A stretch of DNA of 64,000 bases from assembly GCF_054482525.1 (NCBI RefSeq), contig NZ_CM137006.1; one strand, written 5' to 3'. The notes under the pieces were generated by a model. It did not search any database. It saw only the letters and a list, made by a program, of their open reading frames with translations, and was not told the DNA's origin. Every line of letters begins with the position of its first letter. The first letter of the stretch is position 1. The position numbers were made by a program, and so were the translations under genes. Below are positions 42,356-43,960 of the stretch, in pieces.

Positions 42356-42445
42356 TGGGTGAGTTGCAATATATTGAATTTGCACGATCTTGTAGGCCGG
42401 ATAAGGCGTTTACTGAACTGAACCCCAAAACCTGGACAGTTTCAG

Positions 42446-43318
42446 TTAACCGGCTTTTTGATGCTCAGTCCGGTATTCTACCGGACTGAGTCCCCCAAGA
42501 CTGAGTTTTATTCTTTTTTGATTCCAGTAAGTTATGTATTCGTTAACGGCATTTTCCAGCTCTTCTACATTTCTGTAGTCCCGGCGATAGTACATTTCTT
42601 CTTTCAGGTGACCAAAGAAGTTCTCCATTACCGCATTATCAAGGCAGTTGCCCTTGCGCGACATGCTCTGCACTAACCCTCTGTCCGCCAGGGCGGACTG
42701 ATAACTTTTTATCCGGTAATGCCATCCTTGATCACTGTGGAGCAGCGGTTTCTCCCCTTCAGCAAGGCTTTCCAGCCCCTTATTTAACATCCGCTTCACC
42801 AGCTCCTCTGTAGGCCTGCAGGCCGTTTCCCACGCCACGATTTCCCCGTTAAACAAATCAAGTATCGGGGACAGGTACAGTTTTTGTCCGCCAGCCCTGA
42901 ATTCGGTGATATCTGTCACCCATTTCTCACAGGGAGCTTCCGCTTTGAACTGCCGCTGAAGGATATTTTCTGCAGCGAGTCCCATATTTCCCCGGTAAGA
43001 CCGGTATTTCTTCAGGCGCACAGGAGACTTCAGGCCGAGCTGTTGCATCAGTTTTCGCACCGTTTTGCCACTGAACTTAAGACCTCTTTTCTGAAGCTCA
43101 CAATGGATCCGCCGGTACCCATAACATCCCCGGTGTTCATGGAAGATGGAGGCTATGAGCTGTTTCACATCAGCATACTTGTCCTTAGCCTTCTGCAGTG
43201 ACAGCTGGTAGTACAGCGTGCTTCTGGCCAGCCCTGCAGCCTTTAACAGGTCAGACTGGCAGTGTCCGCACCTCAGGCTCCGGATGACTTTCGTTTTTTC
43301 TCCAGCTCCTGGCGCTTT
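42446..43318 (-). CDS. IS3-family transposase OrfB (DDE integrase domain), expressed as an OrfAB fusion by -1 frameshifting
   Basis: ORF track 42446..43168 (240 aa) begins at an internal GTG; the frame stays open upstream to the slippery site near 43314-43320, which is how IS3-family OrfAB transposases are made. The upper boundary is approximate. Confidence 0.75.
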   Translation of the reverse strand, partial: KAPGAGEKTKVIRSLRCGHCQSDLLKAAGLARSTLYYQLSLQKAKDKYADVKQLIASIFHEHRGCYGYRRIHCELQKRGLKFSGKTVRKLMQQLGLKSPVRLKKYRSYRGNMGLAAENILQRQFKAEAPCEKWVTDITEFRAGGQKLYLSPILDLFNGEIVAWETACRPTEELVKRMLNKGLESLAEGEKPLLHSDQGWHYRIKSYQSALADRGLVQSMSRKGNCLDNAVMENFFGHLKEEMYYRRDYRNVEELENAVNEYITYWNQKRIKLSLGGLSPVEYRTEHQKAG

Positions 43319-43803
43319 TTTTCCAGGAGATGCTCCTGCATGGCTTTCAGATATGCATTTTCTGCGCGAAGATAACGCAGCTCATTCTTCATCTCTTCCG
43401 GCGTCATGTTTGCCTCGTTTTCATGGGTATCATCAGAACGGGTCATGCTTTTCTCCTTCCTGCGCCTGATAAAGGCCTCATTACCAGATTTGCGGTAGCC
43501 TTTTATCCAGTTTTTAACCGTGTTGTGGCTGGGAATGTTAAACCGGGCAGCTACCCGGGGTAGAGACTCAGAATGCCCGAGAGCATAAAGAACCACGCAA
43601 AGTTTATCTTCAGGAGAATAGCTACGCTTGTGTCTGCAATCCAGTGCCCGAGGACCGTGAAGAAGAAAAAGATTAATCCAGTGTGAGAGGCTGGTGTGAG
43701 AAAGTTGAAAGAGTTTTGCCGTAGAAATGATGCCTGCATGACCAGCCAGGTAGTGATTTACAGCGGCAAGTTTTACTTCAAATGAATGTTTCATAAACTG
43801 CAC
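43273..43803 (-). CDS. IS3-family OrfA (helix-turn-helix DNA-binding protein with leucine zipper)
   Basis: 176 aa ORF (173 aa from the internal ATG MKHSFEVKLAAVNHYLAGHAG...); C-terminal region ...EHLLEKKRQELEKKRK ends just after the A AAA AAG frameshift motif. Confidence 0.85.
   Translation of the reverse strand: MQFMKHSFEVKLAAVNHYLAGHAGIISTAKLFQLSHTSLSHWINLFLLHGPRALDCRHKRSYSPEDKLCVVLYALGHSESLPRVAARFNIPSHNTVKNWIKGYRKSGNEAFIRRRKEKSMTRSDDTHENEANMTPEEMKNELRYLRAENAYLKAMQEHLLEKKRQELEKKRKSSGA
43314..43320 (-). other. Programmed -1 ribosomal frameshift site (A AAA AAG) linking orfA to orfB
   Basis: Reverse-strand sequence ctg gaA AAA AAG cgc inside the orfA 3' end, in the orfA/orfB overlap; the canonical IS3-family slippery heptamer. 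Confidence 0.7.
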
Positions 43804-43960
43804 CTTCAGATGTCAGATTATGTCCAACATTTGGGGTGCAGTTCATACGCCGCATCCGGCATGAAACGATGAGCAATCTGTAGAGTTTGATTCAGACCTT
43901 CTATTTTTCCCGCTTATCCGTGCCCCATCTCCCATTTTCCCTCACACGTACCGTCACCGC

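Follow-up and report, generated by a model that had tools for sequence, protein, structure and literature searches.

Between livF and ugpB, the 64,000-nucleotide stretch of contig NZ_CM137006.1 (NCBI RefSeq assembly GCF_054482525.1) that we analysed, hereafter the window, carries a transposable element that separates the two halves of a REP (palindromic unit); this locus raises the question of which element it is and whether it reached a REP by chance or by preference. The explanation that best accounts for the observations, and that we hold with near certainty, is that IS1397 transposed into a REP at its central loop, leaving a copy that is intact and probably still active; the REP is the second of two units that form a BIME in the livF-ugpB spacer.

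The borders of the element were read directly from the sequence and enclose 1432 bp (Table 1). On the left, the flank ...GTAGGCCGGATAAGGCGTT ends in TAC; the first and last letters of the element are TGAACTGAACCCC...GGGGTGCAGTTCA; and on the right a second TAC leads into GCCGCATCCGGCATGAAAC, that is, a direct 3-bp repeat borders the element on both sides. An inverted-repeat search identified the ends as 25-nt imperfect terminal inverted repeats (84% complementary, TGAACTG...CAGTTCA), and the end motif has two matches in the whole window, both of which are ends of this element. The first-pass annotation, made from the letters alone, had placed the element at 42391-43870; that interval does contain it but is too wide, extending some 23 bp into the REP flanks at either end; the element itself spans 42414-43845.

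Table 1. Features of the livF-ugpB region, in coordinates of the window.
Feature	Position	Strand	Description and basis
livF	41552-42265		annotation transferred from PCN033
Hairpin GGAGTC-AAAA-GACTCC, then TTT	42284-42302	+	likely livF terminator, outside the element; 19 nt past the livF stop
First REP of the spacer	42327-42355	+	intact, GCCTGAT type; GCCTGATGCGCTGCGCTTATCAGGCCTAC; kept in empty sites
Linker between the REPs	42356-42391	+	contains GCAATATATTGAATTTGCACGAT; five other IS1397 loci have near-identical flanking linkers
Left half of the interrupted REP and left TAC	42392-42413	+	GTAGGCCGGATAAGGCGTT, TAC at 42411-42413; empty-site alignment, inverted-repeat arm
IS1397	42414-43845	- (transposase strand)	1432 bp; 100% identical to IS1397-annotated copies; same annotation at livF-ugpB in PCN033
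Terminal inverted repeat IRR	42414-42438		TGAACTGAACCCCAAAACCTGGACA; downstream of orfB; inverted-repeat search
OrfAB transposase coding region	42446-43794	-	449 aa after the -1 shift; orfB part is HTH_21 and the rve DDE integrase core
Perfect 12-bp inverted repeat, 3-nt spacer	42464-42490		CTCAGTCCGGTA ttc TACCGGACTGAG; inverted-repeat search
orfA	43273-43794	-	173 aa; helix-turn-helix domains, two HTH_28 (Pfam)
Slippery heptamer A AAA AAG	43315-43321	-	site of the predicted -1 frameshift from orfA to orfB; reading frames and fusion match
Terminal inverted repeat IRL	43821-43845		TGTCCAACATTTGGGGTGCAGTTCA; orfA end, facing ugpB; inverted-repeat search
Right TAC and right half of the interrupted REP	43846-43861	+	TAC at 43846-43848, GCCGCATCCGGCA; empty-site alignment, inverted-repeat arm
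ugpB PhoB binding motif	43963-43980	+	TGTCATCTTTCTGACACC; motif per PMC10294691; intact, 117 bp beyond the element
ugpB	44098-45414		follows 249 bp of spacer after the REP

The uninterrupted site is common. We joined the flanks with one TAC to give a 605-bp query and searched it in 5426 complete E. coli genomes; the empty site is present in 4630 of these (at least 80% of the 605 bp), and the query as a whole has matches at 25 places per genome (median). Among a spread sample of 40, every full-length match is one collinear piece, the best with 99.8% identity. In AF40, the empty site is identical over 226 aligned positions, REP included, with no gap at the junction; in K-12, a few bases differ and one more is added well past the REP, with the junction again free of gaps. 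Because the empty site aligns with a clean junction, the element arrived via an insertion that duplicated exactly TAC. The comparison with element-free strains that the first pass had suggested therefore gives an exact answer, and the 3-bp duplication and near-centre position in the REP that it had read from the flanks are borne out by these alignments.

Removal of the element and one TAC restores the REP as GTAGGCCGGATAAGGCGTTTACGCCGCATCCGGC. The two halves were detected in the window as an inverted repeat with 14-nt arms that are 86% complementary and lie 1437 nt apart; as 12 of the 14 arm positions pair, the flanks do rebuild a REP as had been claimed, but one of the usual imperfect form rather than the perfect palindrome described. 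Folded as DNA, the restored unit forms a hairpin of -12.2 kcal/mol (z = -3.9; 0 of 200 shuffles fold as well) in which stems of 7 and 4 bp are separated by a 2 x 2 internal mismatch (AA/GC) and capped by a TTTA loop; the duplicated TAC starts with the final two bases of this loop and extends one base into the 3' stem. The unit is a REP by all of its features, that is, an extragenic, repeated and imperfect palindrome of about 35 bp with the form GCC(G/T)GAT...ATC(C/A)GGC and a GTAG/CTAC tail.

The intact first REP of the spacer pairs with this next unit as an inverted repeat; the spacer has two opposed REP units and a conserved linker, an arrangement that recurs at other loci. BIME-1 elements are composed of two units in opposite orientation that are parted by an IHF-binding L motif, and the linker, with GCAATATATTGAATTTGCACGAT, may be a candidate L motif of this type. 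An Rfam scan of positions 40000-46000 returned a single match, located in the linker (42348-42390, minus strand), to the ES036 (CssrF) sRNA; this match is sub-threshold (28.6 bits against a gathering cutoff of 37.6, E = 0.015), and, because near-identical linkers are found at other BIMEs, it probably reflects the repeat and not a specific sRNA gene.

The coding capacity of the element is that of an IS3-family insertion sequence. The frames of orfA (frame 0) and orfB (frame -1) overlap at CTG GAA AAA AAG CGC, and a -1 shift on A AAA AAG yields a 449-aa fusion identical at every residue to an NCBI protein that bears the name IS1397 family transposase; at the livF-ugpB site of PCN033, RefSeq marks a 'programmed frameshift' together with the IS1397 name. 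Both the OrfA and OrfAB frames are uninterrupted in the window copy. The OrfA protein has an exact match in public collections, where its cluster at 90% identity has 2287 members, and is found on at least 1000 contigs. The fusion scores 387 bits with the NCBIfam model transpos_IS3 (NF033516; cutoff 160), and Pfam recognises two HTH_28 domains, HTH_21, rve and rve_2. A transposase with helix-turn-helix and rve domains, overlapping frames in -1 register, TG...CA ends and a duplication in the range of 3-4 bp together place it in the IS3 family, in agreement with the first assignment.

Folding of the region downstream of the slippery site gave no RNA structure beyond chance (z = -0.87), and a promoter and terminator scan found no promoter-like site within the element and one weak terminator-like site only. 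The perfect 12-bp inverted repeat is located inside the last codons of orfB (...LSPVEYRTE...), about 50 nt from the end of the element; it may act as a terminator or binding site, or may have arisen by chance.

The element was also used as a 1432-bp megablast query against the 5426 complete E. coli genomes. Copies that are 100% identical over the full 1432 bp occur in many genomes under the RefSeq name 'IS3-like element IS1397 family transposase'; a copy that covers at least 80% of the query is present in 1707 of the 5426 genomes, and approximately 7600 IS1397 places are distributed across the set. The length of 1432 bp, which we take to be the reference length of IS1397, is shared by the window copy and the copies at 12 of 14 other loci that we examined; the two exceptions are both annotated as frameshifted, namely the nlpE-yaeF copy in Nissle (1427 bp) and the copy next to rrf (1431 and 1437 bp in two strains). 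Tobes and Pareja (PMC1525189, additional file 13) present a CFT073 REP that is interrupted by IS1397; the reconstructed site that they print is the nlpE-yaeF spacer, where the copy of Nissle 1917 is 99.0% identical to the element in the window. Judged by RefSeq naming and this published CFT073 site, the element is IS1397 (Bachellier 1997; Clement 1999; Wilde 2001, 2003). It agrees with IS1397 in sequence, 1432-bp length, two overlapping frames with a -1 frameshift, insertion in the loop of a palindromic unit, and a 3- or 4-bp duplication; we detected no difference, and the window copy represents one further insertion site, livF-ugpB.

The name that competes for this element is IS150, either IS150 itself or a close variant that entered a REP by accident. 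IS150 is in the same IS3 group and has the same architecture, domain order and 3-bp duplication; its slippery heptamer A AAA AAG is identical, its termini are alike (TGAACTGCACCC vs TGTACTGCACCC), and OrfAB aligns end to end with InsJK (E = 3e-123). However, the IS150 sequence that we used for comparison, a copy from a K-12 derivative with the ends TGTACTG...CAGTACA, is 1443 bp in length, not 1432 bp, and its identity to the element is 55% over the global nucleotide alignment and 42% over the full length of OrfAB. RefSeq maintains separate names for IS150 and IS1397; the single IS150 of K-12 adjoins hokA and has no flanking REP halves; and a distant-mode BLAST with the element gave no IS150-annotated match among the matches listed, with K-12 derivatives matching over only 65 bp that belong to an IS1397 end. 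At 55% nucleotide and 42% protein identity, we reject IS150, to which we assign a negligible probability. The first pass had favoured IS1397 over IS150; the identity of the element to RefSeq IS1397 copies, the exact IS1397 OrfAB and the length all support that choice, and the flanks rebuild a REP as it had expected.

A single insertion alone cannot reveal a preference, and an IS3-family element with no true target preference could have landed in this REP by chance. We therefore read the junctions of IS1397 at 15 distinct loci, that is, the window and 14 from other genomes: livF-ugpB, trmL-cysE, caiE-caiF, yjgA-mpl, entD-fepA, gudD-barA, rhlE-ybiA, metJ-yiiX, ygcQ-ygcP, msrQ-zinT, znuB-ruvB, nlpE-yaeF, torD-cbpM, next to rrf, and pppA-glcA. 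In 15 of 15 sampled loci, IS1397 splits a GCC(G/T)GAT...ATC(C/A)GGC palindrome at its centre. After removal of the element, the strict REP pattern occurs only twice in the 64-kb window; so little of the DNA consists of REP centres that such uniform placement is not the result of chance. REP-specific transposition of IS1397 has moreover been shown experimentally (PMC1525189; PMC3184786). Chance landing is rejected on the 15 loci, and we regard it as next to impossible; the association of other copies with REPs, which the first pass had proposed as a check, holds throughout the sample. The preferred reading, insertion directed to REPs, is not new: REP targeting by IS1397 was demonstrated experimentally in 1999-2003, and, in the summaries given in PMC1525189 (of Clement 1999, Wilde 2001 and 2003), the transposase sets the target choice and recognises E. 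coli-type palindromic units.

The target duplication is 3 bp at nine of the 15 loci and 4 bp at four; at two loci, torD-cbpM and pppA-glcA, none is recognisable. The latter two copies are both 1432 bp and still located in REP centres, with the right REP arm shortened at pppA-glcA; their duplications could have been lost by later mutation or by recombination between two IS1397 copies. All 15 sampled loci are intergenic, and most are between gene ends.

The sample also bears on the orientation of the element. As in the window, IRR (the transposase-distal end) abuts the GTAGGCC(G/T)GATAAG arm of the REP at 13 of the 15 loci, a count that is biased because four loci were found via their flank similarity to the window (without these, 9 of 11, p about 0.07); in six of the 15, the target is a GCCGGAT-type unit beside the conserved BIME linker. 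That IS1397 reads its target directionally is a tentative and on balance unlikely proposal from a small and partly biased sample, and the original papers may already describe such a bias. If real and unreported, the bias would point to recognition by the transposase of an asymmetric feature of the REP (e.g., the mismatched bulge or the hairpin of one strand) and not of the palindrome itself, perhaps with the assistance of a host factor bound to the linker.

Other insertion sequences share the target. According to the titles and summaries cited in PMC1525189, ISKpn1 of Klebsiella pneumoniae, likened here by description, is a further member of the IS3 family with REP specificity, and its target choice likewise depends on the transposase; it differs in a reported preference for Klebsiella-type palindromic units. 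Elements of the IS110 family (IS621, ISPpu9 and ISPa11) are likewise reported to insert into REPs (PMC1525189; PMC3184786), but they encode an unrelated DEDD-type transposase without the IS3-type frameshift and occupy another position relative to the REP. At the rrf-adjacent locus (FDAARGOS_1296 and AH21H025), downstream of the 5S rRNA gene, a frameshifted IS1397 in a REP is found beside a frameshifted transposase gene of the IS110 family, of which members such as IS621 are reported to target REPs; at this site, two unrelated REP-seeking elements may have used one REP cluster.

The livF-ugpB site is occupied in only 10 of the 5426 genomes, with flanks that are 99.5-100% identical; two of them, PCN033 and SCU-102, match the window at 100% identity across 2301 bp, and the other eight include an O7:H15 strain labelled ST70. 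The insertion is therefore recent and confined to one lineage. The identical transposase, WP_100190663.1, is present at six loci (livF-ugpB, trmL-cysE, caiE-caiF, yjgA-mpl, metJ-yiiX and ygcQ-ygcP), which argues for recent movement of this variant.

The occupied genomes could also be explained if the copy is an inactive relic, fixed in its lineage and immobile, that was perhaps brought in with its flanks by recombination and did not transpose there. The near identity of the flanks in the 10 sharing genomes fits the inheritance or transfer of a single event, and some IS1397 copies elsewhere are frameshifted pseudogenes (Nissle, FDAARGOS_1296). In the window copy, however, neither frame is broken, the two ends and the slippery site are undamaged, and copies from elsewhere in E. 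coli genomes match it base for base; the clean 3-bp duplication and the exact empty site further show that transposition brought the element here, whichever the ancestor in which this took place. We consider a relic quite unlikely; from its intact sequence, the window copy is probably still active. Transposition in the IS3 family is known from the model elements IS911, IS2, IS3 and IS150. By analogy with the family, OrfAB of IS1397 would be made by programmed -1 frameshifting, copy-out would produce a circle in which the two ends abut, and paste-in of this circle at target cuts staggered by 3 or 4 bp would give rise to the duplication; according to the literature as summarised in PMC1525189, the IS1397 transposase itself selects the E. 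coli-type palindromic unit.

Fragments of the element are found more widely. Roughly 1800 genomes match the element without a full-length IS1397, including K-12 (ATCC 98082, MC4100) and B derivatives; in 19 of 19 such genomes from a spread sample, what matches is the IS1397 end that lies beyond orfB, present on its own as a 65-bp copy (95.4%). In K-12 ATCC 98082, the solo copy is located between yhhJ and yhhI and corresponds to window positions 42414-42478; its start coincides exactly with the middle of a GCCGGAT-type REP (...TTAGGCCGGATAAGGCGTTTA followed at the junction by TGAACTGACCCC...), and it breaks off amid the 12-bp inverted repeat, where the ISEc1/H-rpt transposase gene yhhI, adjacent to RhsB, truncates it. 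The fragment resembles what would remain of an old IS1397 insertion, in a lineage generally regarded as lacking IS1397.

The insertion splits one REP and leaves the surrounding signals in place. The transposase gene is antisense to livF and ugpB and reads away from ugpB, toward the 3' end of livF; the placement between the livF terminator and the ugpB promoter, antisense to ugpB, that the first pass described is confirmed by the sequence, the PCN033 annotation and the position of the PhoB motif. The hairpin downstream of livF is intact, and was not listed by a simple terminator scan, in which its T run was too short. On the ugpB side, the motif TGTCATCTTTCTGACACC is the PhoB site reported for ugpB (PMC10294691), and a promoter-like site found by the promoter scan, at 43962-43990, overlaps it.

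The 249 bp that separate the REP from ugpB show no change when compared with empty sites. An upstream cAMP-CRP promoter also serves the ugp operon (PMC4415409); a loose scan for CRP sites (TGTGA-N6-TCACA, at most 3 mismatches) gave 161 matches against 200 expected, that is, below chance, and does not place this promoter. Because the hairpin, the first REP, the PhoB box and the 249-bp segment are all unchanged, a strong effect of the insertion on either the livF or the ugp operon would not be expected.

Farther downstream, the 175-bp spacer between ugpB and ugpA (45415-45589) contains two inverted G+C-rich repeats (CCCTCACCCTAACCCTCTCCCAAAGGGAGAGGGGAC ... CCCCTCTGGGGAGAGGGCCGGGGTGAGGGGA), which we take to resemble the BoxC repeat family. 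The K-12 spacer is 97 bp and has two REP units at the same place; different repeat families therefore occupy the same ugpB-ugpA site in different strains.

This locus is an ordinary case, a known element that acts as already described, and its value is mainly for annotation, as a textbook example of a target-specific insertion sequence. The livF-ugpB insertion can be used as a lineage marker for the small group of genomes that carry it, and modern genome data confirm the confinement of IS1397 to REP centres. These centres are harmless intergenic landing places; this helps explain how IS1397 can be maintained in about a third of E. coli genomes while leaving genes undisrupted.
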